Of a DNA stretch of 60,000 bases, positions 1,791 through 58,285 are shown one piece after another (the first letter of the stretch is position 1; each line of letters begins with the position of its first letter). The notes under the pieces are model-generated. The model searched no databases and was not told the DNA's origin. It saw only the letters and a list, made by a program, of their open reading frames with translations. A program made the position numbers and the translations under genes. Source of the stretch: Malacoraja senta (taxonomy: Eukaryota); assembly GCA_038087875.1 (NCBI GenBank), contig CM075990.1:14882001-14942000 (forward strand). The letters run 5' to 3'.

Positions 1791-2010
1791 GCAAAATGTT
1801 TAAGAAGGAACTGCAGATGCTGGAAAAGCGAAGGTAGACAAAAATGATGGAGAAACTCAGCGGGTGAGGCAGCATCTATGGAGCGAAGGAAATAGGCAAC
1901 GTTTCGGGCCGAATCGTCTGAAGAAGGGTTTCGGCCTGAAACGTTGCCTATTTCCTTCGCTCCATAGATGCTGCCTCACCCGCTTAGTTTCTTCAGCATT
2001 TTTGTCTACC
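1791..2010. mobile_element. Palindromic Penelope terminal-repeat mini-element
   Basis: Arms match the termini of the element at 45097-46633. Perfect 13-bp TSD TTTGGTTGAGTAG at 1778-1790 and 2011-2023. Confidence 0.9.
1915..1950 (+). ncRNA. Minimal hammerhead ribozyme motif
   Basis: CTGAAGA-A-GGGT(TTCG)GCCT-GAAA-CGTT: core, stem II and palindromic stem III. Stem I is weak. Confidence 0.55.
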
Positions 2011-2049
2011 TTTGGTTGAGTAGACTTTTTTTGGTTTTATTTTACATTC

Positions 2050-2545
2050 AAGGGTCGTGGGCTTCAGAGGCTGAACCAGAATTTTGATTGTTCATCCCTA
2101 ATTGTCCTTGAGAAGGTGGTAGTGAACTGTCTTCTTGAACTACTGCAGTCTATGCAGTGTGGGTGCACCTGCAGTGTTGTTATAGAAGGGGTTCCACGAC
2201 AATGACCCAGCAAGGGTAAAGGAATTGTGATCTATTTTCAAGTCAGGATGATGCGTGGCATGGTGAACAACTTCCAGGTGGTGGTATTCTCCATGCTCAT
2301 GCTGTCCTCCTAACTGCCAGAGGTTGCGGTTTTGTGGTTGTGGTTTTCTGTCTAAGGAATCTTAATGAGTTGCTGCACTGCGTCTTGTACAAACTGCTGG
2401 TACTGTGTTGGAGTGAGTGAGGAGTTGTGGATCGGATCCCTATCAAGCAGACTGTATGGTGTTGATCTCCTTGAGTGATGTTGAAGCTACATTCATCCAG
2501 GCAAGTGGAGAGTGATGGAATACTCTTCATTATTCCTTCACACTC
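2050..2545 (-). mobile_element. Old CR1-group LINE 3' fragment
   Basis: CATCCCTAATTGTCCTTGAGAAGGTGGT...CTTCCAGGTGGTGGT resembles the reverse strand of a chondrichthyan CR1 3' end (recall). Degenerate. Confidence 0.55.
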
Positions 2546-2572
2546 CTCATCACGCTCCAATACTCCAACACA

Positions 2573-2734
2573 TATACTCGCAGCATGGTCGTAGGAGGTC
2601 GTAGGTAGGTAGGTCGTGATGCTAGTCGTAGGTACTCGTGGCATCAAGTAGGTCGGGGCGTTTTTCCAACATGGTGAAAAATGTCCATGAGTAAAAAAGG
2701 TGGTGAATTAGGTCGTGAAAGTGGGACAGGCCCT
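2573..2734. mobile_element. Harbinger-type MITE, right half only
   Basis: Ends GTGGGACAGGCCCT followed by TTA. Aligns by eye to the right part of the complete copy at 56352-56577. Confidence 0.85.
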
Positions 2735-3100
2735 TTAGGAAGTTCATGTTTCACATTCAAATATTAAGCATGTGCTTATCATTTACATTCACCATTCAGA
2801 TCTCATATGTGATTAGCCACTACGGTAAATGGTGAAGCCAGCCCTTCTTGGTTTTGTGGTTTGTCTCTTTGCTGGTTTCGAAAATGAAGAGGAGGAAAAC
2901 CACAAAGGAAATTTGACAGATTTTAGTTGTTGAGTTTTCAAATGATGCACTGTACATGATGCTATTATTGGAAAGTTAAATGTGATGTGAAGTACAATGC
3001 TGTAAAACTTCCTTGGTCCATTCCCATTAGGTCACAAGCACCAAACTTCCTCTCCGGTTAGATAGGCTGACATTTTCGTGATACAAGGAATAGCAGGAAA

Positions 3101-3783: not shown

Positions 3784-4082
3784 AACGTCTAGTGGAAACG
3801 TCCTGGGCCTATTTGACTGGATGCTGCAATCTTGAGGAAATCACTGCGCTGGAGTAATCAATGGTTGAAGCAGCATCCGTGGAGGGAATGGACAAACAAT
3901 GTTTTGAGTTGGGACCCAAGGAGGAATTTATTTAGTCAGAGGGTGGTGGTGAATCTGTGGAATTCATTGCCACAGAAGGCTGTGGCGGCCAAGCCAATGG
4001 ATATTTTTAAGGCAGATATAGATACATTCTTGATTATTACATGTGCCAGAGGTTATGGAGCGAAGACAGCAGAATAGGGTTA

Positions 4083-4613
4083 TGGCTCTGTCCCACGGGT
4101 TTGCGGTCGTTGGCGGTGAAGCGCGGCGTCGCCGGAAGAGGGGACCACACGGCAACCACGAGAGCGCCGCATGGATGCTGCGCGGGGGGCCAAGTACGGC
4201 CGGTTCAACGAGCTTGCGGTTTCGGCTGATGACGTCTTTCGGATCGCGGGGCTGTGGCGGCGGCCGTGCCGCACACGTACCTCACTGGCGGCGGCTGTGG
4301 CGGTGACCGTGCCGCACTCGTGCCTCACTGGCGGCGGCTGTGGCGGTGCAGGTTCGACTCACGGCGCTCGTGCCTCACTGGCGGCGGCTGTGGCGGTGAC
4401 CGTGCCGCACTCGTGCCTCACTGGCGGCGGCTGTGCGGTAGGAACATATTTTTGGACAGTGTTGTTTTTTTTTTAACATCGTGCGGTGTTGGGAACAACG
4501 CCGCACGGCCCCGGAATTGTGCGTTTGACCGAGCCCGCGGTCTCTGGCGGCCCAGGAACGGTAGATAGTTCCTGTTTCGCCGCCAATGACCGCAGACTCG
4601 TGAGACAGGCCTT
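4083..4613. mobile_element. Harbinger-type MITE with internal GC-rich tandem array
   Basis: Imperfect ~40-bp terminal inverted repeats and TTA TSD (4080-4082, 4614-4616). Removing it restores the CR1 sequence GGGTTAGGAGGGAGAGATAG seen intact near 53276-53295. Confidence 0.9.
4249..4439. repeat. Minisatellite-like array with 43/50/43-bp spacing
   Basis: CCTCACTGGCGGCGGCTGTG starts at 4280, 4323, 4373 and 4416. Confidence 0.9.
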
Positions 4614-5057
4614 TTAGGAGGGAGAGATAGATCAGCCATGATTGAATGACAAAGAAGACTTGATGGGCCGAATGGCTTAAATCCGCTCATCACTTATGAA
4701 CTTGACAAGTACTTCACCATATTACTGCCAAATAGGTTCAGGACGTCAGTGTTTGTTGGAAGTCTTGAAAGTAATACAGACTAAATAATTAGGGCTTGTA
4801 AACTACTATTACAATGTTTTGCCTCTTGCAGTTTATTTCCCCCCGTGGTATAGATTCTCCTCAACAATTTAACCAAGTATATTTCTTTTTTCTGCCCTGG
4901 CAACATTTGTTATTGTAGCTACAGTGTCTACTTTTCATTCTATTTAGCCTTTCAAAATATTCCGGAATAGTTCCGGAATAGTTAGTTCCCAACCTTTGTT
5001 ATGACCTTTATTAGATCAATTTTATTGTCAGCCGCATGCTTTCATTTATCTCTATTA

Positions 5058-5387
5058 TGGGCCTGTCCCACCTAGGCGAGTTTTTAGGCAACTACAGGCG
5101 ACTAGTTTGTCGCCACGTGTTCGCTGTTGGTCGCCGGGAGTAATCGCCTCAGTCGCGCAAAAACTCGTAGCGTCTTTCTGGTCGCTGCTAAATTTTCAGC
5201 ATGTTGAAAAATTTTCTGCGATGGTGGGTTTGATGCCAATGAGTGTAGCTTGACTTCTCCTGATGTAGATGCTGTCATAGGTTGTCGCCAGGATGACGTA
5301 GGTTATCTCCGTTTTTTTACGGCGACCTGCTACGACTGTGACAGTCGCCGGAAGTTGCCTAAAAAATCGCCAAGTGGGACAGGCCCA
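5058..5387. mobile_element. Harbinger-type MITE
   Basis: TGGGCCTGTCCCAC...GTGGGACAGGCCCA with perfect TTA TSD (5055-5057, 5388-5390). Confidence 0.92.
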
Positions 5388-6501
5388 TTAGACTATTAGT
5401 TTGTATTGGTATTGAATTGTTGTTATCAAAATGCGGCGAGATGCAGTGAGATACATTTGGTTTGCGCACTATCCCGGCTAAGCATACCATACATGAGCAC
5501 ATCAGCTGTGCAAAAGAGAAAATTGAGTGCAGAATATAGTGTATAGAATATGCTGATAAAATAAAACGCAGTGAGGTAGATTGGAAGATGAGGAGTTTAT
5601 CCTTTTGTTTAGTTTTCACTGATTCTTGCATCAGTTTTCTTTCACGTTTAGATTATCACACATTCATGTTCATTGTTTACATACATTAATGGTGTTTAAA
5701 TGCATGATGTGGGAGAGTGAGGCGCAGGAAATCCTAGTATTGATTTTTGTCCACTATCACAGTCTTGGCACTTGTTGTGGAACTGTTCAACAGTGGCATT
5801 GGGCCATTGAAAAAAAAAAACTCATCCATTTTAATCCTTTTATGCTTTCTTGGAAATACGGAAGTCTCCACCATTTTCAATGAGATTGACAGAGTCGATT
5901 TGGACATGGGTGATGTGTAATCCATGGACCATTGTTTCCCATTACCATCTAGACAATTACCAGGAAACTCATTTGCTACATACAGAAGATGCAGGTTGGG
6001 CAGCAACTGTGAGGCGAGGATCAGTTGACGATAACTCCATTTCGCAATCCATAGATGTTGCTTGACCTGCTGAGAGTTCCCAGCATTTTCTGCCTTAATG
6101 TATTCCAATATCTGTGGTCCCTTTGGTTTTCATGAAATTGATTAGTTGATCTGTGCAATGGGTACATGAGCAGACTTAGACTGTGAAGTTTTCTGGCAAG
6201 GGGATGCCTTAGAGTACATGTCAAATGGACTTTAGAAGTATGACGGCAAGTCGAAAATGCTATGAATGAGGCAAATAGGCTTCAGGGGCATTGAATTTTT
6301 AAGCAGTAAAGCAACATGATATTAGTTAGCCTATAGTTTGAAAGCTTGAATATTTGAATAGTTTGAATATCTTAGATTTCAAGCATTTGCAGTTCATAGA
6401 TCCACTTTAATTACTGCTTTGTGATAACTGAGTAATTTTCCATGCTGGGGTGCTGCGATACAAGATTTTTTTGTGGGTGCTTTCAGAGACAGACTATTAA
6501 A

Positions 6502-6820
6502 GGGCGTCACAGTGGCATAGCGGTAGAGTTGCTGGCTTACAGTGCTTGCAGCACCGAAGACCTGGGTTTGAATCCGACTATGGGTGCTGTCTGTACAGAG
6601 TTTGTACGTTCTCCCTGTAACCGAGTGGGTTTTCTCCGAGATCTTCGGTTTCCTCCCACATTCCTAAAGCTTACAGGTATGTAGGTAAATTGGCTTGGTA
6701 AAATGTAAAAATTGTCCCTAGTGTGTGTAGGATAATGTTAATATGTGGGGATTGCTGTTCGGCGCGGACACTATGGGCCAAAGGGCCTGTTTCCGCGCTG
6801 TATCTCTAAACTAAAGTAAA
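6502..6820 (+). mobile_element. HE1-type V-SINE, full length
   Basis: tRNA-like head, core GGTTTCCTCCCACA, tail GGGCCTGTTTCCGCGCTGTATCTCTAAACTAAA. Confidence 0.85.
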
Positions 6821-8957
6821 CCCTTGAGAGCAAATTGAGAAAATAGTTTAATAATAAATAATAAAATATGTTTAATCACCCCTTTCCTGGGTTTTAGTAG
6901 CTTTCATATTTTTTGTAGACCCTGTGAGAAAGTTTAAAGTGATGAAAACAACAGTTTTAAGTGTATACCATTACTCCAATGTCTTAAAATAAGCTTTCCG
7001 TCAAGGTTTACAGTTCATGAACCAGCATTACTATGAAAAGAAATGTATAACATGATGGCGCATTATTTGTTAAATAGTCTGTAGTAAGATCATGTTCCTT
7101 AAAACACATTGGTGCTGTTTATATAAGGTACTTGAAAGTGACAACGTCATATAATAAAAGTGTTGACACATTGGAATTGGAGTATGTTTTAACATGTGTC
7201 ATTTGAGTTAATGTAAGAGTAATTTGGGAGTAGTTATTGAACACTGCATCCATTGTCATGGTGGTGAGGGCTTATGTGTTCAATCCAATAGCTACAGTAT
7301 TCTATTATATAGTGAGTTGGAATAGGGTGCTACTAATTTTTTAAGTTGTTATCTGCATTTTGCTCCCTGACTCAGTAATATAAATTATACAATGACATTA
7401 GAAATAAGTTCACCCTGAAGTGAAAATAAACCTCTTCTTCAATTTTATGTCAGTAGCGATATTTATATTGTGTATTGCATTTACCATGTGAAGCCTTCTT
7501 CATTACTCTGAAGACTTGTTGGTGTTTTTGTAAAATTAAATTTGACATTCAAAATGAGGGAAGGATGTTTTTGGTAATTTTGATTTATTTTTTTGCAATT
7601 GCTTTGTGTAAATCACGCAGACAATTTGTAGAAGTGGCTAATTTGAGTTCTAGCTACCAATCTAAAAGAAAATCCCTGATGATATTACACCACAATATAA
7701 TATGATTTGAAGACTTTTGCATTTGTATTGTATGGACTGGTATAATAATGATGTGTTCACTGATTTCAGTTAAATGCCACCATTACTGATCATAGAACTA
7801 AATTAAAATATCTCAAATGGTTAATCTTTGACCTGATTAGTAAGTCTGGGCATGTAACAGTATACTTTTTATTGCACTTTACAATCTGCATTATTATGAA
7901 GCATTAGTATAAAATGTAATTTGAATAATAAGGCACATTACAGTTATATTATGGGAAGATCACTGTAGTTACAACCATGTAATTTTGAGACTTGCAAGCA
8001 TAATAGAAACTTAATAAGCAATGCAGCTTGACATACAAAAATACTCATTGCTGTAACCTATGACAGAGCATAGAATGTTTATAGTTTCAACAGAAATTGG
8101 TGTGTCTTTTCTTAATCCTTGTTAGGTATTCTGTTGCAATTAAATAAAGATTAATCATTATAGTTTTGAAAATGTTTTTCACGTTGAAATCATTCATTAT
8201 AGACATTGAATGATCTACTGCAGTGAAGATGACGTGCACTATCTAGTGGAGTTTTTCATTAAATAATGTTTTCTTATTTTCATCAGGTGCTTGTGTAGGG
8301 GTTGATAGTAAATCATTTTAATTCTTCTCCATGATATAGTAAAGTGTTAATAAATCCTAAATAAAGAACAGGTTTATTGACTGATCTGCCGCTTTTATGG
8401 GATAGTTTGTTGAAACAGAATTAAAACCCCCCAAAAAAGCACCAAGTGCTGGAGGAACTCAGTGGGTCGGGCTGTTGCTGTGGAGGCAATGGACAGATGA
8501 CATTTCAGGTTAGAACCCTTTTCAGAAACTTTATACATTTTAGAAATAAGTACTTTCGGTCAACCCATAAGTTTAGAAAAACTGAAGTTTCATTTTAGGA
8601 AATAAAATTATTTCAATAACATTCACAATGGAATATACCCATAGATCACTGCAATTGAAACCCAGTTCCATGGATTTATTTAGTTGGGTGTCATTTATAA
8701 TACGAATTTAATACCGCTGGCAAATGTTCTAAGATATTACTATATATTTATGCCCTTTGAAAACATCATAAACACCAATTTAAAACTGCACAATGATAAA
8801 ATTTAACATTGTGCAATAAATTTAATGTCACCTTAAATTTGTTGTGTTTCTGCACCTCCAGCAAGGAGTTATCTTGTTTTTGCATTTTACAAGTTTTCAA
8901 TGTCCAAGTATTTTGGATTTTTGAGTAATTTAATTTCCTAAAAGTAAATGAAGATTT

Positions 8958-9135
8958 GGTCATAGAGTCATACAGTGTGAAAACAGGCCCTTCGGCCCAA
9001 CTTGCCCAACCTACCAACATGTCCCATCGACGCTAATCCCACCTGGCTGCATTCTGCCTATATCCCTCTAAACCTGTACCTGGCAATGTTTCTGAAACAT
9101 TGCGATAGTCCCTGCCTCAACTACCTGCTCTGACA
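8958..9135 (-). mobile_element. CR1 LINE 3' tail
   Basis: GTCATAGAGTCATACAG...AAACAGGCCCTTCGGCCCAAC, the same tail type as 19829-20180. Confidence 0.7.
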
Positions 9136-9621
9136 GCTTTTCATGTTGAAACAAACAACAAAACTAAGAAATAAAATTTGATCAGGTTATCAGATAGCAA
9201 TGTTATGCTAAGTGATAATTTGGTAGAGGGAATAATTTTATCTGTGAGTCATGAGACTGATGTGAATTATGCTTGCAGCTTCCTAAGATTGGCTATTCAG
9301 CAAGAGCTTTTCACAAAGCATTTATTCCCTGAAAATTGCTGGTTAAATTTTGGGAATTAATTTCCATCTTGGAGCAGAGCCATATAACTCATTCAAGCAC
9401 CACCACCCTCTCCACTATCAGCCCTGTTGCAGGGATTCAGCCCAAAATGTCAACCATTCCTTTCCTCCCACGGATGCTGCTCGACCCTCTGAGGTCCGCC
9501 ACCAGATTACTATTGAGCAAGTGTTATGTCAGGCACTCAGCTCACTCTGTCAAATGTTCTTCTTCCTTGAATTGAGCACGCCAACAAAACAACTTTGCAA
9601 ATTGAAAACTTAAATTTAATA

Positions 9622-9853
9622 ATAAGTTCATAAGTGATGGGAGCAGAATTAGGCCATTCGGCCCATCAAGTCTACTCCGCCATTCAATCGTTGGTGATCT
9701 AGCTTTCCCCATTGAACCCCGTTCTCCCACCTTCTGTCCATAACCCCTGACACCCGTACCAATCGAATCTGTCAATCTCCGCCTTAAAAATATCCATGGG
9801 CTTGTCCTCCACAGCCTTCCGTGGCATTGAATTACAGAGATTCACCACCCTCC
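9622..9853 (-). mobile_element. CR1/HER1 LINE 3' end
   Basis: Matches 3471-3783 and the reverse of 53043-53366. Confidence 0.8.
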
Positions 9854-12092
9854 CACCATCCGAAGAAACACAGTGGACGGTTCAGTCACCATTCCAATGC
9901 AGCCGTGCATTTAGCTGGAGTTTTGTCGCATGCTGACAACCTTTAATGGCGAGCAGCTCTGTAATTTTGCTTCACACATTTTCAGGCTGTGAGCTCAAAG
10001 GTTAAGATGTCCAAACACCTCCCACAATTTCTCTCGCCAATTTGGTTACCTTGATTGGTTCAGAGAACGGAAGGAGTGTAGCCTTCCCGTTTGTCTCTTT
10101 CAATGAATCTAGCCTGATAAATTATTCACATTATATCTGTGTCATTTGGTGAGTGGTCTTGATATGTAATTTTTACCTTGTTATTTTATTTTAAAACATG
10201 CCTTGTTTTGGTTGGAAGGCAGATTCATTGTGGTGCCATACTATAATTGATAAAGGCATTAGAATCGCCCCTCTGGTACTGGAGCATAGAGTGGTGTTGA
10301 GATAGTTAAAGATAAATGAGTGAGTGAGTGACTGGACGGGGTGATTATATTGCTCTTGGGTTTGACTGAAATTGAATGAATTTTCCTGATAGTAAATATG
10401 CTTTCATCTGCTTCCATTTCATGCTTCTTGTACTTTTATTTGATAAATGCACTAAGACCATATGGAGTCTATCTGCATGTATTCTTCTTATAGACCATGG
10501 CCAGGCCTCTGAGCCCCAAGGGCCCGAAAAAGCAGAGCTAACCTAGTTGCTGCTTGGTGTATGTCATTGTTGGTCGACTACCTGTCAGTTCTCAGTTTTG
10601 TTGATGTGTGGAACAATGTCAACCTGATGTCTAAAGTCACTCACAATTATCATTAACCAGAGATGCTGCCAGAGTGAGTCTGGTCATAAAGATGCTGAGG
10701 ACATTATTGTACACTGAGTACTTACAGGGCTGAGAAAGTGGGCAGGCTTCACCAGCAAGTAGAATTTCAGAACCCAGCTGTTTAACTTGGGCATTGCACA
10801 AGTGCTGAAGATCAGTAAAATATTTTTTTCTCTGCAATGAGTTTTAAGAACAATTCCAGTTTTCATGATATTTCTTTATGCTCTAATTTTTTCTATTAAT
10901 CTTAGATTAATCTTTGGTCTGCATTATTCCATTATTATGTTGAAATAACCCACTCATTTATTGCATTGATAACAAATGAATATTCCTCTTTTATTAATGG
11001 TGACTACCTAAAATTGTTTTAGTTGAATTCAAATCGACCTTAGCTTCAGAAGGTTGGGTTTTACCCACCCTGGTGACTCTTTCTCTGTTCTCAATTCACA
11101 TTTAAGTTTGAAACGCTGGTTGAGTAAATGCACAATGAACTTCAAAACCTGGTAATTGTGTTTATTTTTTACCGGAAAGAATGAAACTCGTGAATTGTAA
11201 AAGAACAGTGGGAGCGTTTGTCGTTCGTTAGGTTTGTTTTGTGCCCGGCTCTGACGCCTGTCTTCCACCTTTCCCCGTAAATACCATGGCTGGTCGTCTA
11301 CCCGGCCGCATGTCACATGGCAGGCGGAGAGAAGTCATGGGTGGGAATTAAAAGACTTCGAACGAGCCTTGTCAGAGATGGGTAACCCACACAACAGCTT
11401 AAAAGGCGACGTTAAGTAGAGGAGGAGAGTATTTACATGTACGCTGAGGTTATTTGTGGTCTATTGAAGCAGGTCACAGGTTTGGGGGGTATGGGGGGGG
11501 GATTAAAAAGTTACTGTGTACGTGTTATGCTGCAGCTGTAAGACATGAATAATGACTTAAACCTGACTAGAGATAAAGGCAAACTTTATCTTGCTGTTTG
11601 AAGCTGAGTCTGCCTTTGGGAGACAAAAAATCCTTTTTCATTTGAACCATCTGGTTACTTCTTGTTTACAGCAAACTATGTCAGATTGTGCTTATTAATC
11701 ATGCTTACACAAGTATCTTAATTACTCCCTGCGTAGCTGCTCCGTCTTGAACTCAGAAGTTGACCTTTCTCTTTTTATTCCTTTAAATCATTAATCATAC
11801 ATAATCAACGCCATCGGGGCAGTGCTACAGAGAAGTCTGGCCAGCCTTATTCAGCACGCACTATCCCCAAACAGGCACGTAGAATGAGCCCGTTGCTAGC
11901 AGTCAGGCATATCTTAATTAATGACTTGCACACACCAAAAGAGTTATGTGAGTTGACTGCCTTTTTCTTTTGCGCTCTCTCAAGTTCCTGTTGTAGTGCA
12001 GTTTGTTATCTTTTTCTCATAAAGTGCTACTGCCTTTCACTTTTCTCAATAAATAGAGGTGTTGTTTTTAGGAAACACTAAACCTGAGCAGT

Positions 12093-12290
12093 TTAGGTTG
12101 AGGTTCAGATTTATTAACGTCACCTCTACCGAGGTACAGTGAAAAGCTTTGTTTTGCGTGCAATCCAAACAGATCGGACATACATCAATGCAATCAAATT
12201 AAACTCAAGTACAATAGATAGAGCAAAAGGGAAGAAACCGAATCGAGTGCAGAATGTAGTTCTCAACATTGTGGTGCAGTTTGCCCATAA
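12093..12290 (-). mobile_element. Rex/Babar-type LINE 3' tail
   Basis: Shares TACCGAGGTACAGTGAAAAGCTTT with 13461-13855. Confidence 0.6.
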
Positions 12291-12331
12291 ATATTATCTT
12301 TATGTTGTTGTCCTAACATAAACATTTGGTG

Positions 12332-12458
12332 TGTAAGAAAGAACTGCAGATGGTAGTTTAAATCGAAAGTAGGCACAAAATGCTGGAGTAACTCAGCGGG
12401 ACAGAGAGCATCTCTGTGGAGAGAAGGAATGGGTGACGTTTCTGGTCGAGACCCTTCT
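12332..12458 (-). mobile_element. Solo Penelope terminal-repeat mini-element
   Basis: Perfect 13-bp TSD TAAACATTTGGTG (12319-12331, 12459-12471). Terminates inside the hammerhead motif. Confidence 0.85.
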
Positions 12459-13053
12459 TAAACATTTGGTGGTTGGACATTCAAAATTATATATTTTTCA
12501 ATGTAATCAAAAGATTATGACTACTGTGATTATCCATTTTAATTGATAGTTTATTTTTTTAAATGAACACAAATTGAGTGCACAATTAATCATTCTTTTC
12601 ATAGTCACCTCCACCTCAATCAATCTAAGCATTCAAGTTTAAGCATGCTATTTCCTTTACAATTTATTTTCTGTAATTTATATTTGACTGTGGATCTATT
12701 AACACATTCTTTCTGATTTTTATGACCAGAATAATTGATTATTAAATGGTTCATTAAAAACTGCTTTTACCACAACACGTGAAATCAGCAATGATTAGTT
12801 TTGTCTCAATGTCATTATAATATACATTGTCTTCAATGTGATGTCGACAAAGAGGTATACTTTGAGGTACCGAAGAATACATTGAAAGTAAATATATGAG
12901 TGAGGGCAGTGTAGATGGGGCATCTTGGTTGGCACAAGCAAGTTGGGCTGAAGGTCCTGTTTCCCTGCATTGTGACTATTGATCTTTCCGTGATGTTTGG
13001 TACTGAAACTAATTCTAAAAATGCAATGCAGTGGTTTGACTCGTTAATTTTCT

Positions 13054-13278
13054 AGTGTTGGAAGGAACTGCAGATGCTCGTTTACACCGAAGATAGACAC
13101 AAAATGTGAGAATATCTCAGCGTGACAGGCAGCATCTCTGGAGAGAAAGAATGGGTGACGTTTTGGGTCAAGATGTAGTCAGAGGGAGGACCTTGACCCA
13201 AAACGTCACCCATTCCTTCTCTCCTGAGATGCTGCCTGTCCCGCTGAGTTACTTTAGCATTTTGTGTCTATCTTTAGC
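13054..13278. mobile_element. Palindromic Penelope mini-element
   Basis: Inverted arms. TSD TTAATTTTCT (13044-13053, 13279-13288). Confidence 0.85.
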
Positions 13279-13460
13279 TTAATTTTCTGTTTGAACAAAC
13301 AGGGAGAGCTTGTGGAATATTTTGTAGTAGTTGTGCTGGAGATGGAATATTGAAACATTTTTACTTGGGTCAACATTCCTGAACGAGTTGTAGCATTAGT
13401 CACACCACCGGCAAGTAAGATCTAAGCTGCTCATTAATTTGCTATGTATAGCTGACATCT

Positions 13461-13855
13461 TAGTTAGTTAGTTTAGTTTATTGTCACGTGTACCGAGGTA
13501 CAGTGAAAAGCTTTTGTTGCGTGCTAACCAGTCAGCAGAAAGACAATACATGATTACAATCGAGCCATTTACAGTGTATAGATACATCATATGGGAATAA
13601 CGTTTAGTGCAAGGTAAAGCCAGCAAAGTCCAATCAAGGATAGTTTGAGGGTCATCAAAGAGGTAGATTGTACTTCTTCAGCACTGCTCTGTGGTTGTGG
13701 TAGGTTGATCTAGTTGCCTGATATCTGCTGGGAAGAAACTGTCCCTCAATCTGGTGGTGTGCATTTACACACTTCTATACCTTTTGTCTGATGGGAGAGG
13801 GGGGGAAGATGGAGTGGCCAGGGTGCGACATCCTTGATTATGCTGCTGGCTTTGC
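13461..13855 (-). mobile_element. Rex1/Babar LINE 3' end
   Basis: Minus strand encodes PLPSDKRYRSV, similar to the Rex1 LPSGKRYRS motif. Ends in a (CTAA/CTAAA)n tail. Confidence 0.75.
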
Positions 13856-14406: not shown

Positions 14407-14525
14407 TTCCCCCCCCACCCTCCCCCCACCATCCTCCATCTCCCCTCCCCCCCATCTTCCCCCCCCCCACTCATCTTCCCCCCTGTCTCCTCCTCCTCCC
14501 CCCCCCAATCTCCCACCACACCACC
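14407..14525. repeat. C-rich low-complexity tract (G-quadruplex potential on minus strand)
   Basis: Multiple runs of 5-9 C separated by short spacers. Confidence 0.8.
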
Positions 14526-23860: not shown

Positions 23861-23861
23861 T

Positions 23862-41545: not shown

Positions 41546-41562
41546 CATGCACTTAATGGTTT

Positions 41563-45588: not shown

Positions 45589-46425
45589 CCTGCTTCCTGT
45601 AAGGACTCTATCCCCCACTCCCAATTCCTCCGTCTATGCCGCCTGCTCCCAGGATGAGGCATTCCACACCGGGGCATCCGAAATGTCCTCATTCTTCAGG
45701 GAACGGGGGTTCCCCTCCTCCACCATAGATGAAGCTCGCACCAGGGTCTCTGCCATACCCCGCAACACTGCTCTCTCTCCCCATCCCCCCACTCGCAACA
45801 AGGGCAGAGTCCCCCTAGTCCTCACCTTTCACCCCACCAGCCGTCACATACAACAAGTGATCCTCCGTCAGTTTCGCCACCTCCAACGTGACCCCACCAC
45901 TCGCCACATCTTCCCATCTCCCCCCATGTCTGCCTTCCGCAAAGACCGCTCCCTCCGTAACTCCCTTGTCAATTCTTCCCTTCCCTCCCGTACCACCTCC
46001 TCCCCGGGTACTTTCCCTTGCAACCGCAAGAGATGCAACACTTGTCCCTTCACCTCCCCCCTCGATTCCATTCAAGGACTCAAGCAGTCGTTCCAGGTGC
46101 GACCCAGAGGTTCACCTGCATCTCCTCCAACCTCATCTATTGCATCCGCTGCCCTAGATGTCAGCTGATCTACATCGGTGAGACGAAGCGGAGGCTTGGC
46201 GATCGTTTCGCCGAACACCTCCGGTCGGTCCGCAATAACCTACCTGACCTCCCGGTGGCTCAGCACTTCAACTCCCCCTCCCATTCCGTATCTGACCTCT
46301 CTGTCCTGGGTCTCCTCCATGGCCACAACGAGCAACACCGGAAATTGGAGGAAATGCACCTCATATTCCGCTTGGGCAGTCTACATCCTGGGGGCATGAA
46401 CATTGAATTCTCCCAACTCTGCTAG
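45589..46425 (+). pseudogene. Penelope polyprotein C-terminus: RT thumb, Cys linker, GIY-YIG endonuclease (frameshifted)
   Basis: PASCKDSIPHSQFLRL, FPCNRKRCNTCPF and NLIYCIRCPRCQLIYIGETKRRLGDRFAEH...GMNIEF. Frameshifts near 45642 and 46103. Confidence 0.92.
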
Positions 46426-46540
46426 CCCTTGCTGTCCACTCCCCTTCATCAGCCCTCTGGTTGTCTCCTCCCATCCCCCAGCCCTCGGGCTCCTCCTCCG
46501 CCTTTTTTCCTTTTTTCCTTTCTTCTCCCCACCCCCTATC

Positions 46541-46575
46541 AGTCTGAAGAAGGGTTTCGGCCCGAAACGTTGCCT
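46541..46575 (+). ncRNA. Minimal hammerhead ribozyme motif in Penelope terminal repeat
   Basis: AGT-CTGAAGA-A-GGGT(TTCG)GCCC-GAAA-CGTT-GCCT: CUGANGA and GAAA core, UUCG-capped stem II, self-complementary AACGTT. Confidence 0.7.
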
Positions 46576-46923
46576 ATTTCCTTCGCTCCATAGATGCTGC
46601 TGCACCCGCTGAGTTTCTCCAGCATTTTTGTGTACAGTGGATTTAACATTCCTCACTGTGATGGAAGGCAATAAAGTTCAGTCTTCCTTCCTCCTTTGTT
46701 TGGTCATCTTCCTCCTTAGATTGCAAGCTACAGAAGGTACCCCTGTGTAAAGACAAACAACTCAAACACTGATGACTTTTGAGGGAGAAATAGATTCCCC
46801 CCTGCAAAAAAGCAGGTGCCTGAACTCACAAACTCTAGTTCAGGATCAGTTGATTCCTCGTCTTTTATATGAGTCTCCTTTGTGTGGCTGAATCACAAGC
46901 AACATGAATACTTGAACATCAGT

Positions 46924-48296
46924 AGTGGGGAAACTGCTAGAGTCAGTTATTAAAGATGAGATAGCAGCACATTTGGAAAGTGGTGAAATCATTGGACAAA
47001 GTCAGCATGGATTCACGAAAGGTAAATCATGTCTGACGAATCTTATAGAATTTTTCGAGGATGTAACTAGTAGCGTGGATAGGGGAGAACCAGTGGATGT
47101 GTTGTATCTGGACTTTCAGAAGGCTTTCGACAAGGTACCACATAAGAGATTAGGATACAAACTTAAATCACACGGTATTGGGGGTTCAGTATTGATGTGG
47201 ATAGAGAACTGGCTGGCAGACAGGAAGCAAAGAGTAGGAGTAAACGGGTCCTTTTCACAATGGCAGGCAGTGACTAGTGGGGTACCGCAAGGTTCAGTGC
47301 TGGGACCCCAGCTATTTACAATTTATATTAATGATCTGGACGAGGGAATTGAAAGCAACATCTCCAAGTTTGCGGATGGGGGGCAGTGTTAGCTGTGAGG
47401 AGGATGCTAGGAGACTGCAAGGTGACTTGGATAGGCTGGGTGAGTGGGCAAATGTTTGGCAGATGCAGTATAATGTGGATAAATGTGAGGTTATCCACTT
47501 TGGTGGCAAAAACGGGAAGGCAGACTATTATCTAAATGGTGGCCGATTAGGAAATGGGGAGATGCAGCGAGACCTGGGTGTCATGGTACACCAGTCATTG
47601 AAAGTAGGCATGCAGGTGCAGCAGGCAGTGAAGAAAGCGAATGGTATGTTGGCCTTCATAGCAAGAGGATTTGAGTATAGGAGCAGGGAGGTTCTACTGC
47701 AGTTGTACAGGGTCTTGATGAGACCACACCTGGAGTATTGCGTACAGTTTTGGTCTCCAAATCTGAGGAAGGACATTATAGCCATAGAGGGAGTGCAGAG
47801 AAGGTTCACCAGACTGATTCCTGGGATGTCAGGACTTTCATATGAAGAAAAACTGGATAAACTTGGCTTATACTCGCTAGAATTTAGGAGATTGAGAGGG
47901 GATCTTATAGAAACATACAAAATTCTTATGGGGTTGGACAGGCTAGATGCAGGAAGATTGTTCCCGATGTTGGGGAAGTCCAGGACAAGGGGGTCACAGC
48001 TTAAGGATAAGGGGGAAATCCTTTAAGACCGAGATGAGGAAAAACTTTTTCACACAGAGAGTGGTGAATCTCTGGAACTCTCTGCCACAGAGGGTAGTTG
48101 AGGCCAGTTCATTGGCTATATTTAAGAGGGAGTTAGATGTGGCCCTTGTGGCTAAGGGGATCAGGGGGTATGGAGAGAAGGCAGGTACGGGATACTGAGT
48201 TGGATGATCAGCCATGATCATATTGAATGGCGGTGCAGGCTCGAAGGGCCGAATGGCCTACTCCTGCACCTATTTTCTATGTATCTATGTATCTAT
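46924..48296 (+). mobile_element. CR1/HER1 LINE, 5' truncated, reverse transcriptase pseudogene
   Basis: [38 protein letters not shown], and ISKFAD followed by a deletion/frameshift near 47378. Second frameshift near 47990. (TCTATGTA)n tail. Confidence 0.97.
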
Positions 48297-49417
48297 GGGA
48301 AAAGACACATCCTCTGGGATCAATTGTTTGGCAAATTTGGCAAACGTTTATTAATTATGAGAATGCAGTGAGGTCCTACAAACAGTAAACATTGATTAGA
48401 TAGTCTATATTGGTGTTCGTGGTTCGGATGCATATCTTATGACTTTGGAGACATATCTTGGATGTTGATGAGACTTCAGATTGCTGCTTAGAACCTCACT
48501 CCTTGGAACATCTCTTCTCTCAAGACTTTGGTATTTCAATGAATGGAACCCACACTCATTACTGCACAAATTATCACCATTGAAGTGTTGCTCATATATT
48601 GGCATAGAGTTTGAAACTACAAACCTCCAGTTTACAACTGAGCCAAGATCATGCAAAGATGATTGAAGACATCACCAATGATAAATTAATCCCAGGTGGC
48701 TCTTAAAAACTCTCTGCACTTAAATTTTAATTATTTTGATATGCAATGTGTATAACTGATTTAAGGTGCTGTTCTAATGAACAGCCTGAAACAAACAATG
48801 CTTCTCTTTCAATAATAGGTGATTAATACGCATTTTCTGCTTACAATTTCCGATTTCCAGCACCTGCAGTATTTTGTTTTTGTAAACCCCTATAATTTTC
48901 CTGTTTCATAGCTATATCTCAATCTTAGAAGAATAGATTTTATATTTTTACCATATTAAGTCATAATTACATTCAATTTCCCAATAACTTCATCCACTCT
49001 GCCAATACTTTATGCCATGGGGAATTAATCATCAGCCCCATACTGCAGACTTGTTTGTGGGCAAAACATTTAAAGATGGGTAAACTAATTTCACCTTGGG
49101 CCTACAATTGCATGAATTCATTTTTTTTAGGCAAAATAACTGATTTGATCTTCTGTGCGTATGTAAAATCATTATCTCTTTGATGCACTTGTTACTGCGT
49201 TTAAAATGAATTTTGACACTTCATTAGTTCAAGGTTTTTTTGGAGGGAATTGAGGGTGGTGTGGTGGAGACATGTTAGTTTTATTCTTCATTGTAAAGGA
49301 CACCCAACCGCTGAGATGAAAAGGCAAGTTTAATGCAAGCCAAGTGTGCAACTGAGTTCTCCACATACTACCCAAGCAATGTTTCTTGTGTAAAGCTCCA
49401 TCCAATTCACAATCTAA

Positions 49418-50036
49418 AGGGCCTGTGCCACTTGGCCGTCATTCGCGCGCCATTTACGCGACCTGCTAGCATGTGGGTAGCGTGTGGGTAGCGCGGGACG
49501 GGCGCATGGAGTGGCGTGGAGGAGTGTGGACTTCGTCCTGCACGAAATCTTCGCGCGCCACCGGCCTGTCGTGTAACTGACGGCCAAAGTGGGACAGGCC
49601 CAAGACCCTGGCGCAGCGCAATGTCTCACCTCCAACAGCAGCAGAAGCAGGAAAACGATCACCGAGCTCGGCCTGGGGCTCACGGCCGTTGTGGATCCGG
49701 ATCCGCCCCCACTCCTACTCCCAGAGCGGGACCAAGATGATTGGAGATAGACACAAAATGCAGGAGTAACTCAGCGGGACCGGCAGCATCTCTGGAGAGA
49801 AACAATAGGTGATGTTTTGGGTTGAGTCCCTTCTTCAGACTGAAGAAGAGTCTCGACCCGAAACATCATCCATTACTTCTCTCCAGAGATGCTGCCGGTC
49901 CCGCTGAGTTACTCCTGCATTTTGTGTCTATCTTCAAATGACGTCACGTGCTCCAGACGGGTGTGCGGACCCATGATGACGCGCGACAGTCACTACCGGC
50001 CTGTCGCGTAAATGACGGCCAAGTGGGACAGGCCCT
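49418..50036. mobile_element. Composite Harbinger-type MITE
   Basis: TAA|AGGGCCTGTGCCACTTGGCCGTCATT ... AATGACGGCCAAGTGGGACAGGCCCT|TAA. A third, internal terminus lies at about 49560-49601. Confidence 0.92.
49741..49937. mobile_element. Penelope terminal-repeat palindrome inside the MITE
   Basis: Arms of about 98 bp centred on 49839 (CTTCTTCAG-A-CTGAAGAAG). Confidence 0.9.
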
Positions 50037-50174
50037 TAAACCTATCCATTTGCAACATTGCTATCCATGTGGCCAATGTCAGTCTGGAAGATTAATGACA
50101 ATTGGTGTTGGATTGTGGGCAGATTTACACTGCAGACCTGACCTCCTCAGAAACTGCTTAAACAAATAACATTT

Positions 50175-50297
50175 GTCTGAAGAAGGGCCTCGACCCAAAA
50201 CGTCACCTATTCCTTCACTCCATAGATGCCGCCTCACCCGCTGAGTTTCTCCAGCATTTTTGTCTAATTTCAATTTTTCCAGCATCTGCAGTTCCTT
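50175..50297 (+). mobile_element. Solo Penelope terminal repeat starting at the hammerhead core
   Basis: Begins GTCTGAAGAAGGG. Flanking direct repeat CTTAAACAAATAA (50157-50169, 50298-50310). Confidence 0.85.
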
Positions 50298-52002
50298 CTT
50301 AAACAAATAAAATTGTTCAATTTCTGTGTATACATCTTGAAAACTTAATGATCTCAAGTTCAATTAGATATTAACTGATTGAAACATAGGAGCCAATACA
50401 TTATGTGGTTGACCAATAATTTATATTTCTCAGAATTCATATATGGGTTTTTTTCATTTTTAAAACATCATTACAAAGCAGCACATTGGTAATAATAATG
50501 AATCATACAGCATCACCGATTTTCAGTAAAAGTTGATTACAATTTTGTTAGCTTTATAAAGAGGGTTCATTCTTAAAATGTAATTGTAAGGATGGGCAGT
50601 ACAAAACACTGAGTCAAGAGTCATACAACATGGAAACAGGCTCTTCAGCCCACCTTGCCCATGCGGAGCAAGCTTCTCCATCTACACTAGTCCCACCTGG
50701 CTTTATCCCACTAAATCTTTCCTGTCCATGTACTTGTCCCAATGTCATTGAAGAGATCTGGCTCTGTGTCTGGTCATGAGGTTGATGTATCCATACCTAT
50801 ATCCCTTCTTCTGGCATCACATTTCATGCCTCTTCTCTCCTTATCTCATTGTCTTTTGTCTTTTGATGTCTGGCCTTCTTCCAACTGTCTGCCAATCAAA
50901 CTCTTCTCGCCTACATCCGCCTATCACTTGCCTGGCTTTGTCTAGCCCCCACCTCGCATCCAGCTCTCCCCCCCCCCCCTCCCCACAGCTACAAATATTC
51001 TGAAGAAGGTCTCAACTTGAAATATTGCCAATTCACATCAGGTTGTATCTTCAGGCCGTGGTGTCTCCATTAATATATTAATTGTTTAATATTGTTTCCA
51101 CTTAAAAGTTGATGCTGTAATTATTAGTGTACATTGCAATATGGTTTCCTAAAAATATGTTGTTATTCAGAATGAAATTTGAACCATATTTTTTCTCTTT
51201 CCCTGGCGATGCTCTTTGTTGTGTAAAGGAATTCCTTATTGCCAGGTCTGTGCCAAAGGTTTGAATGCAAGTAGAGCTGGATTCCTCCTCCAATTTAATT
51301 CCTAATACTCTGCTGAGCAGTGATGGATAACCATGTGGACCGAAAACGTGTGCGGCATCGACGGCTGCTTCACAAGGGACCTCTGGGATGCTGCTCTTGT
51401 GACCCGAGCCCTTGCATAACTCGGCACTTGATGAAACTGATTCTAATCTTCAATTTAGGTTCAGATTTCAATCGGGACTCGCGTCGCACCTTCCCCATTT
51501 ATTTGTTTATTCAGCGTGACAAACGAGTAATTTGTTTACTCATGGGCTCTGTAGTAAAATGAGGTTGGTGCTTTTTGATTATTAGATTTCAAAATGTCTA
51601 ATTTATTCTTTATCTCATTCATAAATAATTCTGGACCTGAATATTATTTAAACGGAAAAATAAATTGTTTTGAAGAGAAAATTGCCTGTATCTGTTGAGG
51701 AGTCCAGTGAGTGCGATATTGCTGAGTTAATGATTTACAAGAGGAAGCTAACCTGTGGGATATGTTGGACTATTAGTGGCTATGCATGAGTAGCCAGGCA
51801 GCTGATCTGGTGGCCACAGGTAAATGTTCTCATTTCTCATGAGCAAAGTTCCTGCTGAGATAGGTAATGATCTTCATAGCAGGGCAAAGAAAGGTGTGGA
51901 GAATTGAATGAAACAGTAAAAAAAATGCCAACAATAGACTGAGCAGGGCAGCTAAGTATGCACGGTGCAGAAACTGCCAATAGATTGACGTTCATCAAGG
52001 GA

Positions 52003-54240: not shown

Positions 54241-55344
54241 GATAATAGAGAGACGTAGGTTCCTCGAGTAAAGGGGTTTCCAGAACAGACGCTGGTTGAC
54301 CTCTGCTTGGAAGCTATCTCCTTCATTTGGAATTGCCACCTGCAGTCTCCATTGGATGGAGTCCTACCTCAGGCTGACCACCTTTGTGTTGTCTGCACGC
54401 AGGACTATATCCCGTTCAGCCATCCAGAGCATAGAGGTCAGCATCTGAGACCTTGAGTAGTGGCGTGATCAGGCCCTGCCTCTGAGATCCCACCAACAAC
54501 TTTACACACCTGGCAAGGATAGGGCCAGGGCTTTTCAGATGGGAGGAACATGTTTATTTTTAGTAGTATTGACTGCTGAAGGTTGGGGAATGACGTTTTC
54601 ATGGCTGAATGCAGTGCTTCTGAGTAAAACACCAGCAATAACCTGCTGTCTTTGTCCTTGTGTTTTTACAGTATAAAAATATGTTTTCATCTATAAATCC
54701 TACCATTCCCTATATCACCAATCTAGTTTTGCATTTGTTTAACACTCCACATCCCTTGATGTTTTCTTTGAGGCATTTGTGTGACTCGGACATTGTTTGA
54801 ACTTAAAGCATCACTAAGCCACGCTTGTCCACCTCGAGGCTAAACTTGCGATGCACATCCCAATTTTCCTGCTTTATTATCCATCAGTTCAGCTTTTAGT
54901 GAAAGAGGTTTTCAGGTTTATTGTTTTCCTACACAGTCACATGAGAAAATATCAGAATTACTCTACAACCTGAGCAGGGGAAGATAACATCATTGATATT
55001 GCCAGTGGCTGGGCTGGAGAAGACAGACACTGACTGACTTTACGACTAGAAAGAGTCACTGCAGTGCACTTCACATAAAGATGATGTTGGTGACCGAGTC
55101 CATAATGGAGTTGAGCTCCAAGGCCTTGATTAGCAATACACCGAACCATATAACAGTGACATGGGTTTGGCCAGACCAAACCCCACTGAGAAAATCCCTC
55201 TGAAAATCTTTAAGTACAAAGTCACCCTTGGTTTGTCTTCCCGCTCATGTTGTGGAAGCTTTTAATGTTGCTGAATTCCCCAGATATTTGAAAGCATTCA
55301 AAATTTACTCATAAAAAACAATTAAAACAAAAACGACATTTTTT

Positions 55345-55985
55345 TTTTAAATTATTTTTTTATTAAATTCTTTTTTTATTGAACATGTTAAAAAAAATAC
55401 AAACACAAATAAACTTATAAGCAGTAAAAAAAAGAAAGAAAGAAAATAAAACACAAAGGAAAACAAACAAATTAAGTACCTCAAATAATACAAATAATAT
55501 CGTTCATGTTCAAAAGGGGTAAGAAGAAGTTCGAAAACTTTTCTGGTCCTACCCCCTCTTATTTTCTATACATTTTCATGGAAAAACAAAATAATGGGAA
55601 CAAATGGACCCAAAATCTGTTGAACAGTCCACAAACAAGAAATAACCAAACAGAAAAGAAAATGACTGGTCCAGCTCATAACCATTCAATCTTTTGTTTC
55701 TGAAGAGTGTTTTTAGTTTGAATAGAGTCTTACATTTTTTCATCTCATCATGGCAGTTATTCCAGAGACTAACACCCTTTGCTGGAACACAATGGAGTTT
55801 TGCATTAGTTCTTATTGCCGGTTTTTTCGAATATATCGGTTCCTCTCAGGTTGTGTTTGCTTTCTCTCCGTTGGAACAACCCCTGGATATTACAAGGCAA
55901 TTGCTGATTTGCTGCTTTGAACATAATTTGGATAGTTTTATAATCCGTCAGATCTTGAAATGTTAATGTTTTAAGTCAGTCATTA
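55345..55985 (-). mobile_element. Crack/Daphne-type (L2 group) LINE 3' end
   Basis: Minus strand encodes LKTLTFQDLTDYKTIQIMFKAANQQLPCNIQGLFQRRESKHNLRG (frameshift) RTNAKLHCVPAKGVSLWNN, then an AATAAA/poly-A tail. Confidence 0.7.
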
Positions 55986-56142
55986 AACAATGAGACATTG
56001 TAAATAATTACTGCCAATACAATTAAGTCTGAAGAAGGATCCCAATCTGAAACATTGTCTATCCATTCCCTCTACAGATGCTTCTTGACCTACTGAGTTA
56101 TTCCATTACTTTGTGCTTTGCTCAAAATTCCAGTATCTGCTT

Positions 56143-56600
56143 ATGTAGGAAAGAACTACAGATGGTGGTTTGTACCGAAGATGGGCACAAAATTCTGGAG
56201 TAACGCAGTGGGCCAGGCAGCATCTCTGGAGAAAAGGAATAGGTGACATTTTGGATTGAGACCCTTCTTCAGACTGAAGTCAGAAGAGGGTCTCGACCAG
56301 AAACGTCACCAATTCCTTTTTTCCAGAGTTGCTGCCTGACCCGCTGAGTTAAGGGCCTGTCCCACTTTCACAACCTAATTCACGACCTCTGCCGAGTTTG
56401 CCCTTGACTCATACTCGCAGCATGGTAGTCACGAGGTCGTAGGAGGTCGTAGCAGGCCGTGGTGCTAGTCGTAGGTATTCGTGGCATCAAGTAGGTCGGG
56501 CGATTTTCTAGCATGATGAAGAATGTCCCCGAGTAAAAAAAGGTCGTGAATTAGGTCGTGAAAGTGGGACAGGCCCTTGACTCCAGCATTTTGTGTCTAT
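56143..56600. mobile_element. Palindromic Penelope mini-element interrupted by a MITE
   Basis: Right arm CCGCTGAGTTA|CTCCAGCATTTTG is split between 56351 and 56581. An older copy lies at about 56025-56140. Confidence 0.85.
56352..56577. mobile_element. Harbinger-type MITE, complete
   Basis: AGGGCCTGTCCCACTTTCACAACCTAATTCACGACCT and its near-perfect inverse. TSD TTA/TGA. Confidence 0.92.
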
Positions 56601-58039
56601 TTCCAGTATCTGCAGTTCATTGTGTCTCCATCAGGAAAGAAAATCAATTTGAATGGATTTAAGTCATAATTATGGACCTGTTCAAATTATCTGTAGACCT
56701 CCAGAAGGTAACTCTACTACTACATAGAAATGATGGATGATCACAGTAAAAGGATTGCAATAATCCTGGATGACAGAAATCTTCATATAATGTGGGCAAT
56801 TATATTAGATAATGTGATCTTCACAAAAAGTTTGCAGAATGCATTTGATTTACCTGCTAGGCCAATAAAATGTGGACCTGGTCAGGATGCAGTATGTCAT
56901 AAGACAGTATTAAATCTAAAACCTCGTGATTCTTTAGGGAAGAGCAATCATAATATGACAGACTCTCCAATTTTTTAAGGGAATCTTAAGGTAATTTAAA
57001 TTCTTTGTTATAATTTTCTGGTCTTAAAATGTTTACAACTTTGGTTTATATAACTTTAGAAGCATTGAGGAATAACTAATAAGTTTATAAAGAATGTAGA
57101 AAGAGAGCCAAATAACAAGAAAGATAAACATAAGTTGTGAGTCAAATAATGCAGGCATTCAGTACCAAAGTAAATACTAGTCCCTATAAACTGAGGCACA
57201 TGAATTTACAATAGGATAAACATATTAATCAAATGCTTTGCAAGTACCATCACAATAGTAGACATTGATAGTATTCTGATTAAATATCAAATAAACGAAG
57301 AGAGGCAAGGATCAATATTGTCAGCAAAATCATAGTTGTTAAATGAAAAGGACTTGGGATTCCTTGATAATTCTTCGAGTACATGTGAAATGGCTGAATT
57401 GGAGTCTGTAGTTTACAAAGGCCTAAGGCAATAGAAAATAGCAACATGTAATACACAAATTATTGTTTTGATGTCAGCTAAAACCAGTATGGTTACTTTG
57501 TCTGAAGGGTCAAGACAGCAGTTCCTGGATAGAAAGAGAAGCTAATTAGGATTTCTGTTGCTTAATGCAATCACTATTGGAAGTATATGTGCAGGCATCA
57601 ATTGAAGACCAGATTAAGATGGGCGTTGGGAGATGTTTCCAACATTCACATCCTATAATACCCATGGTCCAAGGCAAAGAGATCCCATCATCGCATACAA
57701 GGGAGTTTTATCTCTTGCCTTGCATTAAAAGGGCTTGTTGCACCAAACTAATGGAGCCATTGGTTATGGCAAATAAAAACAATGATGTAAGGATGTATTT
57801 GCGATGTGGATGAGAGAATTTCTGGTAAGGTATAGAATTGGTTCTTGCAATTCCTGAACCAGACCTATTCACTTTGCAACCTCATTTGATGAGTATTCTT
57901 GTATTTGATGGATTACAATGAGTAGTATGGAGAATATGACCTAAGCAGCTAGTGTTGGATCAAATGTTCACACTCAGCAACTTAAAGCATCTTTAGCATG
58001 ACATACAACCAACCTAGTGAACAAGATCATTGTAAATAA

Positions 58040-58285
58040 TAATGTAGGGAAACAAGAAACTTTAAAACTGGTTTCACTAAAAGCTAAGGAGATATCGTGA
58101 TTAGTAACTCCACGGGTAACTCCACAGGTCAGGCAGTATCACTAAAGAACAAGGATAGGTGATGTTTTGGGACAAAACCCTTCTTCAGATCCATGGTATC
58201 CAGAGATGCCATCTGACCTGATTTACTCCAGTATTTTGTGTCATTCTTTGGTAAACCAGCAAATCTGCAGTTCCTTGTTTCTGCA
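58040..58285. mobile_element. Degenerate palindromic Penelope mini-element
   Basis: AAAACCCTTCTTCAGA centre with diverged inverted arms. Confidence 0.65.

Follow-up and report, generated by a model that had tools for sequence, protein, structure and literature searches.

What sets the ends of the short fragments that a transposable element leaves behind in a genome? The question is raised by a 60,000-nucleotide (nt) stretch of the Malacoraja senta genome (contig CM075990.1, positions 14,882,001 to 14,942,000; the window in what follows), over which pieces of the terminal repeat of a Penelope-like element (PLE) are scattered. The original prediction, made from the letters of this stretch, had described about 20 such short elements and had read them as a non-autonomous family delimited by its own hammerhead ribozyme. 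A BLAST search with the PLE copy at 45097-46633, together with local alignments, bore out the swarm, with 28 short loci and one 1.5-kb PLE copy across the window. The inner ends of these short copies, which we call stubs of the terminal unit or head, pile up about 30 nt upstream of the predicted ribozyme cut, and none of those counted lies near the cut itself.

Inner ends of the stubs

We number positions from the C of CTGAAGA as +1, with no zero. This C is nucleotide 46544 on the plus strand of the 45097 copy and 45226 on the minus strand. The minimal type I hammerhead core of this copy (CUGAAGA, an extra A, stem II and GAAAC-GUU) occupies 46544..46571 on the plus strand, with a mirror at 45226-45199 on the minus strand, and its predicted cut follows 46571, that is +28 (GAAAC-GTY) in the minimal type I layout of PMC4209133. 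Inner ends were counted in 15 elements with 27 ends, each fixed by a target site duplication (TSD) or by an inversion junction. Sixteen of them lie at -5..+4 (two symmetric palindromes count twice here), seven at +8..+21, four at +43/+44 and none at +25..+33; 13 of the 15 elements have an end at -5..+4. Per base, stops are 17 times as frequent at -5..+4 as at +5..+60 (16/145 versus 11/1695; Fisher p 6e-12), with seven long arms, those of five short loci and the two of 45097, counted as passers. The predicted clustering of ends at the CTGAAGAAGGG motif was thus borne out, but it is the 5' edge of the motif, upstream of the predicted cut, at which they cluster.

The outer ends fall near +92 (up to +99 in the middle one of about three subfamilies recognized from a tree and alignment of the window copies) or near +127, two sites 35-38 nt apart. 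Between these 3' ends, A and B, lies an optional tail of ~38 nt (+93..+130; 45097..45134 on the minus strand). Stubs from both 3' ends and from all subfamilies stop at the same inner place. That the head is a conserved coding sequence was rejected, as indels of varied length separate the subfamilies.

Plain random truncation is refuted in the window by the 17-fold difference in stop rate. The UTRs (untranslated regions) do differ between subfamilies, so that alignments give false ends at about -6, and several apparent free ends of old copies are not true ends. The old-subfamily copy at 27251..27688 (minus strand), a control rather than a stub, continues past the boundary through a 3' UTR of its own to the end of the open reading frame (ORF) at 27611-27688; it shares upstream sequence with the copy at 51000 (score 46, with the 99% null at 33). 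Because this artefact is real for old free-ended copies, these were excluded from the end count. The 13 short loci left out have neither a significant TSD nor an internal junction: 27251, the old stub at 56023, and decayed fragments at 3850, 6041, 9412, 22942, 23175, 24530, 29733, 34910, 42013, 44497 and 51000 (within 3848..51033). The cluster nevertheless holds for ends defined by TSDs or junctions, including those of young copies with a known UTR, and selection against long copies cannot lift -2 above +10. We therefore give hardly any credence to random 5' truncation in which the cluster stems from divergent 3' UTRs or from selection against longer copies.

Single stubs show the boundary most directly. 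The young, tail-less stub at 41563..41656 (minus strand) runs from the A end (+92) to -2/-1 (TSD 41550-41562 / 41656-41668), and that at 12332..12459 (minus strand) from the tail end to +4 (TSD 12319-12331 / 12459-12471). The stub at 50175..50306 (plus strand) runs from -2 to the tail end, which its TSD (50157-50173 / 50298-50314) overlaps; this TSD begins with the same eight to nine letters as the tail end of the element, so that the target was homologous to the region in which reverse transcription starts.

In eight of 12 head-to-head pairs, one full arm is joined to a trimmed one that is short by 8-44 nt. The young pair at 1791..2010 has its tail on the left and inner ends at +13 and -2 (TSD 1778-1790 / 2011-2023). 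Further pairs lie at 13054..13278 (about +12 and -3; TSD 13044-13053 / 13279-13288), 16678..16864 (+21 and +4; TSD 16663-16677 / 16865-16879), 29400..29579 (+8 and +43; TSD 29387-29399 / 29580-29592) and 31428..31625 (+11 and +1; TSD unconfirmed), and at 16994..17128, where no TSD was found, a stub running from +10 to the tail is accompanied by a short inverted piece (+13..+1). Old pairs are present at 24229..24420 (both inner ends near +43, filler in the middle, no TSD found), 41165..41361 (+16 and -2, joined on a GTC microhomology; TSD not significant) and 58100..58285 (-1 and +44; 7-bp TSD borderline). The region 56023..56351 holds an old stub starting at -3 (56023-56140) and an adjoining inverted pair (56143-56351; inner ends -5 and -3), which is interrupted by an element resembling a miniature inverted-repeat transposable element (MITE). 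Two palindromes are symmetric about -1: that at 29901..30080 (centre 30000; right arm internally deleted, tail on the right; TSD 29887-29900 / 30081-30094) and the tail-less one at 49741..49937 (centre 49839), whose arms share private variants, whose TSD is not significant and which lies within a MITE-like element. It had been proposed to ask whether palindrome junctions recur at different loci: only this symmetric junction does, on a native TCAG-T-CTGA micro-palindrome, and 10 of the 12 two-arm junctions in the window are unique.

Ten TSDs had been listed in the original prediction, and eight of them (1791, 12332, 13054, 16678, 29400, 29901, 41563 and 50175), 10-17 bp long with at most one mismatch, passed a test whose null consisted of 3000 random position pairs (p 0.0007-0.0023). 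The two that failed it were 31428, whose best score near the boundary had p 0.78, and 41162, which matched at 8/9 bp (p 0.16). Among all 29 loci, nine passed (these eight and 45097), three were borderline at p 0.05 (29733, 44497 and 58100) and 17 failed. The passing TSDs are 70% AT, compared with 59% for the window. We judge it right that the copies are independent PLE insertions made by the reverse transcriptase (RT)/GIY-YIG protein of the element.

Contig ends and the hammerhead

The same stretch of the element (45085-45504, 90% likeness) was followed in contigs from four runs of four organisms (X2, X3, X5 and X18, the last probably a DNA run); all figures for loose ends are those among the matches listed. 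Loose ends leading into mixed, AT-rich flanks were found at -1/-2 in X2 (51 and 92), at -2/-3 in X3 (138 and 117), at -2 in X5 (180) and at -1/-3 in X18 (10 and 20). In all four runs, the loose ends at -1..-3 reach 2.6-6.6 times the mean of an even spread over the head, and this inner pile is close in size to that of loose records at the tail end (+124, before 45103; 168, 279, 271 and 41, respectively). An end at +93/+94 (45133/45134) is listed for X3 and X18. UTR variants that part at -6 give short, G-rich ends (row 45232), whereas the ends at -1..-3 are long and AT-rich. The depth of the head is 6.5-10 fold that of the ORF end in all four runs, a ratio of summed contig depth and not of copy number. 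At the predicted cut (45198/45199), there was no loose end among the matches listed and no step in depth. Outside these runs, stray copies were sought by motif in contigs from metagenomes, viruses and prokaryotes, with no match in six scans.

These data leave little of the proposal that self-cleavage after GUC/GUU delimits the elements. It can point to the intact core of the young long copy and to the fragment at 23175, which lacks a TSD and begins near +29/+30. Yet both the window ends and the contig ends lie elsewhere, helix I comprises only two base pairs, a 2x2 loop and two more base pairs (75% of cells paired; 4-5 bp expected), and its outer part is missing from stubs that start at -3..-1, the boundary lying inside its 5' strand. 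Moreover, hammerhead mutants leave insertion unaffected in PAc, a Poseidon element of Anolis carolinensis, for which the text of PMC11167929 reports that cleavage needs the protein and is dispensable for insertion, and that no reads end at the cut. Delimitation by the ribozyme is largely refuted, and the chance that it is correct is minimal.

The hammerhead itself is best preserved in the 45097 copy. With the definition of minimal PLE hammerheads in PMC4209133, its features (CUGANGA, an extra base, G10.1-C11.1, GAAA and a palindromic ACGU for helix III) are all present there and are decayed in the stubs; the intact minimal core (CUGANGA-N-G...C-GAAAC-GUH) occurs only in the two arms of 45097, and a relaxed core in eight copies. 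Stem II is paired in 86% of cells. Covariation in the helices did not exceed that of shuffles (326/500), and a search of Rfam gave nothing at gathering in the window and only chance-level matches over 45000-46800, no hammerhead family among them at E up to 10. Published minimal PLE hammerheads are described as cleaving weakly and as dimers (PMC4209133). The inner ends fit an uncut RNA template: they place its 5' limit 30 nt upstream of the cut and speak against cleaved RNA as the form usually copied; the best reading is that the hammerhead is a passenger in stub formation.

Probable run-off from an RNA 5' end

We favor, as the probable though by no means certain explanation, that the stubs are by-products of autonomous PLE replication in which RT runs off a fixed RNA 5' end. 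From the insertions and ends observed in the window, we infer a start site, a run-off step and a joining step. The RNA 5' end would lie at -3/-2, probably at an RNA polymerase II (Pol II) start at TCAGTC. The PLE protein would nick both strands, and RT would start inside the RNA at the two sites that define the tail (about +92 and +127). The transcript would hold two copies of the ~130-nt head. Long, randomly truncated copies (45097 and 27251) would stem from priming in the downstream one; priming in the upstream one would lead, after 95 or 130 nt, to run-off at the 5' end of the RNA. One run-off complementary DNA (cDNA) would leave a single stub; two of them, one per nick, could form a head-to-head pair if their 3' ends were linked, either with trimming or by way of microhomology. 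Retroviral minus-strand strong-stop DNA arises in a like manner, in that a primer close to the 5' end of the RNA and subsequent run-off give a fixed short cDNA of the terminal repeat; here, however, a nick in chromosomal DNA would provide the primer and the cDNA becomes integrated, and we intend an analogy, not membership. Parts of the scheme are published: two internal RT start sites that account for the tail gap, priming on both strands and insertion without hammerhead cleavage (PMC11167929), and start sites within the pseudo-long terminal repeat (pLTR) of PLEs (PMC2377424, PMC8557442).

The boundary motif TCAGTCT (46539..46545, plus strand) matches the initiator (Inr) consensus YYANWYY, with the A at -3 (46541), and ATCAG(T/C) is conserved in subfamilies whose upstream UTRs fail to align. 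The loose consensus after -2 opens with a C (an extra G in RNA sense) in three of the three runs with such a row, and two contig joints at -3 carry one extra C; this letter is a weak hint at a copied cap, with little support in the window.

Several points weigh against this account. YYANWYY occurs at 1.2% of positions, so that the motif alone is weak, and the boundary is at the same time a micro-palindrome, a CAG resembling a 3' splice site and the base of a predicted terminal stem. The RNA 5' end is deduced from contigs, which cannot show RNA starts; the ranking of loose ends is not by count alone, depth mixes subfamilies, and inner ends in the window were partly set by hand and eye. The extra G is only the first letter of a consensus with 0.34 agreement; after -3 this first letter is T for X3 but C for X18, and of the window ends at -2/-3 only those of 44497 (borderline TSD) and 41162 (microhomology) show the extra G. 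In the Penelope element of D. virilis, the reported start lies upstream of helix I by 46 nt and an intron of 75 nt (PMC2377424, PMC4209133); not every PLE, then, starts at this position. Finally, contig joints with a fixed extra letter stand at a depth of 567-2425, which points to tens of copies, given a depth of 11-29 for the long contigs of X5 that look single-copy.

Such joints bear on the alternative that the PLE protein acts in trans on transcripts of certain stubs or palindromes and inserts them anew, or that another element carries them. Two joints (45218/45186 and 45218/45187) each recur in two organisms, the palindrome at 49741 lies inside a MITE-like element, and both trans mobilization of pLTR-flanked DNA and non-autonomous PLE derivatives have been described (PMC8557442, PMC3846280, bioRxiv 10.64898/2026.07.22.740005). 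In X3, a joint of 45230 to 45103 (depth 777; strand not given) links the tail end to position -4 and may represent a head-to-tail dimer of a unit-length stub, from which a retrozyme-like array might arise. Recurrent joints could also result from a recurrent hotspot or from cargo in another element, as well as from real re-mobilization. In the window, on the other hand, 10 of 12 junctions are unique and the two alike sit on native microhomology, the stubs share subfamilies with long copies and no clade of their own was seen in the tree, no tandem array of the head is present, and a stub lacks upstream promoter sequence. The separate non-autonomous family that had been predicted was thus not seen in the window, whereas the multi-copy joints leave room for a minority of stubs that may amplify as units; as an explanation of the stubs we deem it improbable.

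A somewhat greater, though still low, probability attaches to a stop or fold-back driven by structure on a longer RNA, RT halting where +2..+10 pairs with the tail at the base of a stem, or fold-back of the cDNA, for which TCAG-T-CTGA and the self-complementary stem II offer sites. An uncapped 5' end left by processing at the base of the stem would give the same picture, and a structural stop or a processed end may underlie the boundary. The unit from -3 to +130 (45097-45229, minus strand) is predicted to fold with its ends paired, +2..+10 with the tail end, but with a z of only -1.6; RT would meet this stem at its 3' side, not after it, and tail-less stubs end at the same place. Fold-back gains from the two symmetric junctions in the window and the 122 symmetric junctions recorded at -5 in X5, from secondary ends at +8..+21 that fall in stem II, from the grouping of the arms of 49741 and of 13054 in the tree, and from the self-priming proposed for rotifer PLEs (PMC3846280). 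It is unneeded for the single-arm, TSD-flanked stubs at 12332, 41563 and 50175 and for the AT-rich loose ends, and the arms within most pairs are no more alike than other copies are, the exceptions being 49741, 13054 and 45097. Within the predicted fold, the letters of an inner AGAUGCUG/CAGCAUCU stem persist across subfamilies, and the fold is a candidate structure for protein binding or priming.

An antisense RNA polymerase III (Pol III) unit, akin to a short interspersed element (SINE) and transcribed from the A end in the direction of -1, is very doubtful. An exact antisense A-box lies ~20 nt inside the A end in the middle and old subfamilies (12389, 29928, 41218, 49767 and other old copies), but no copy has an exact B-box, so that of the two boxes of a tRNA-type SINE only an A-box, in antisense, was found. 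Although the A-box is gone from the young subfamily, stubs arise there as well; stubs with a tail begin 35 nt further out, and trimming affects the hammerhead side.

A pyrimidine tract at 46500-46543, ending in CAG just before the hammerhead, forms a strong signal resembling a 3' splice site; the intron of D. virilis Penelope is reported to end at helix I (PMC4209133), and sense copies with a UTR could serve as exon traps. A shared spliced exon 1 upstream of the CAG at -2 was set aside, the loose ends being mixed and AT-rich and no such joint being present among 15 listed of 103.

Beyond the stubs themselves, run-off may tentatively be viewed as a normal step of PLE replication. The head would then be an R-like repeat at both RNA ends, and strong-stop cDNAs from the 5' head would build the pseudo-LTRs and inverted ends. 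In this lineage, aborted products would integrate en masse, outnumber ORF-bearing copies several fold and mark the start site, a subset spreading as a non-autonomous family of its own; with the start inside helix I, only read-through downstream heads would form the ribozyme. We regard this wider scheme as less likely to be right than wrong.

The element, its relatives and its neighbours

The 45097 copy (45097..46635) consists of two truncated arms, 1048 and 491 nt long, head to head and with the tail on one side: a sense arm at 45588-46635 (plus strand) and a tail-bearing inverted arm at 45587-45097 (minus strand), between TSD copies at 45083-45096 and 46634-46647. It holds only the endonuclease (EN) end of the ORF and no RT, and is a truncated sibling of the stubs, not their source. 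Descent of the swarm from this copy, as originally proposed, also does not fit the identities: only 1791 and 41563 are near-identical to it (92-97%, the only two copies to reach 95%), 50175 and 29400 reach 86-88%, and the remaining copies, of other subfamilies, 72-88%. No copy in the window extends to the telomerase-like RT domain that EN+ PLEs carry upstream of the EN. Fragments of a long interspersed element (LINE; non-LTR), presumably CR1-like, lie at 46916-48293 and 23235-23862 (RVT_1 match, E 7.6e-22); the RT that is thereby found beside the 45097 copy is not that of the PLE.

The ORF fragment (45961..46425, plus strand; frame break near 46100) matches GIY-YIG just under the gathering cut-off (PF01541, E 0.00028, 21.6 bits against 22.6), its top Atlas matches are to GIY-YIG (0.96-0.97), and its translation shows the CCHH residues (C-x2-C, H, H) and a CNRKRCNTC linker, that is CX4CxxC. 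A CX2-5CxxC linker before the EN is said in PMC8557442 to mark Neptune, to be shared with Nematis and to be absent from Penelope and Poseidon, and from its sequence the element appears to be an EN+ PLE of the Neptune type (Neptune/Nematis linker). The inverted pLTRs, the optional 30-40-nt tail and the TSDs of EN+ PLEs are all present among the window copies. Neptune elements share with it the C-terminal GIY-YIG and linker, a hammerhead in the pLTR, 5' truncation, an inverted copy at the 5' side, a tail of 30-40 nt at one end and TSDs; they differ in that most window copies comprise only the 95- or 130-nt head with a fixed inner end, and the text of PMC8557442 does not describe such a truncation hotspot.

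PAc likewise has two internal RT starts around its tail, AT-rich targets, priming on both strands and no need of the hammerhead (PMC11167929). It belongs to another clade, its ORF starts in stem II, where the window element has no ATG, and a fixed 5' end of short copies is not described in the text of that paper. The Penelope pLTRs of Adineta vaga resemble those of the window in their inversion, junction palindromes, TSDs (8-10 bp), tail, Inr-like motif and solo pLTRs (PMC3846280), but are explained there by self-priming on an antisense template and have a low copy number. Non-LTR retrozymes (PMC7229834; bioRxiv 10.64898/2026.07.22.740005) are also short, non-coding, pLTR-derived, hammerhead-bearing and dependent on the PLE protein; as described there, they are head-to-tail tandem units with monomers cut by the ribozyme, whereas the window stubs are solo or head-to-head, with ends off the cut. 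Identity with them was rejected on these grounds, the one tail-to-head joint being that in the contigs of X3.

Truncated, inverted and tailed PLE copies, junction palindromes, solo pLTRs and trans mobilization are already on record (PMC8557442, PMC3846280, PMC8969392), as are retrozymes as non-autonomous PLE derivatives (PMC7229834; bioRxiv 10.64898/2026.07.22.740005). In a search of mainly open-access literature, Repbase entries aside, neither a fixed 5' boundary nor strong-stop-like PLE stubs turned up, although figure S2 of PMC11167929, on the coverage of genomic copies, may already contain this step. Insertions with both ends fixed provide a natural record of the PLE reaction and bear on the formation of pseudo-LTRs and head-to-head repeats and on the role of the hammerhead; run-off and joining become testable with existing genomes, cap analysis of gene expression (CAGE) and the published in vitro system. 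Such palindromes can, as a caution, be misfiled as MITEs or SINEs.

MITE-like copies accompany the stubs. Their family has terminal inverted repeats with GGGCCTGTCCCAC, some adjoining TTAA (2721, 3099-3469, 5059-5390, 49416-50040 and 56346-56583); one copy contains the 49741 palindrome and another interrupts the pair at 56143. The family appears to resemble non-autonomous DNA transposons of the Kolobok type. A GC-rich tandem repeat with a 43-bp unit, present in 4.4 copies, lies at 4246-4439.

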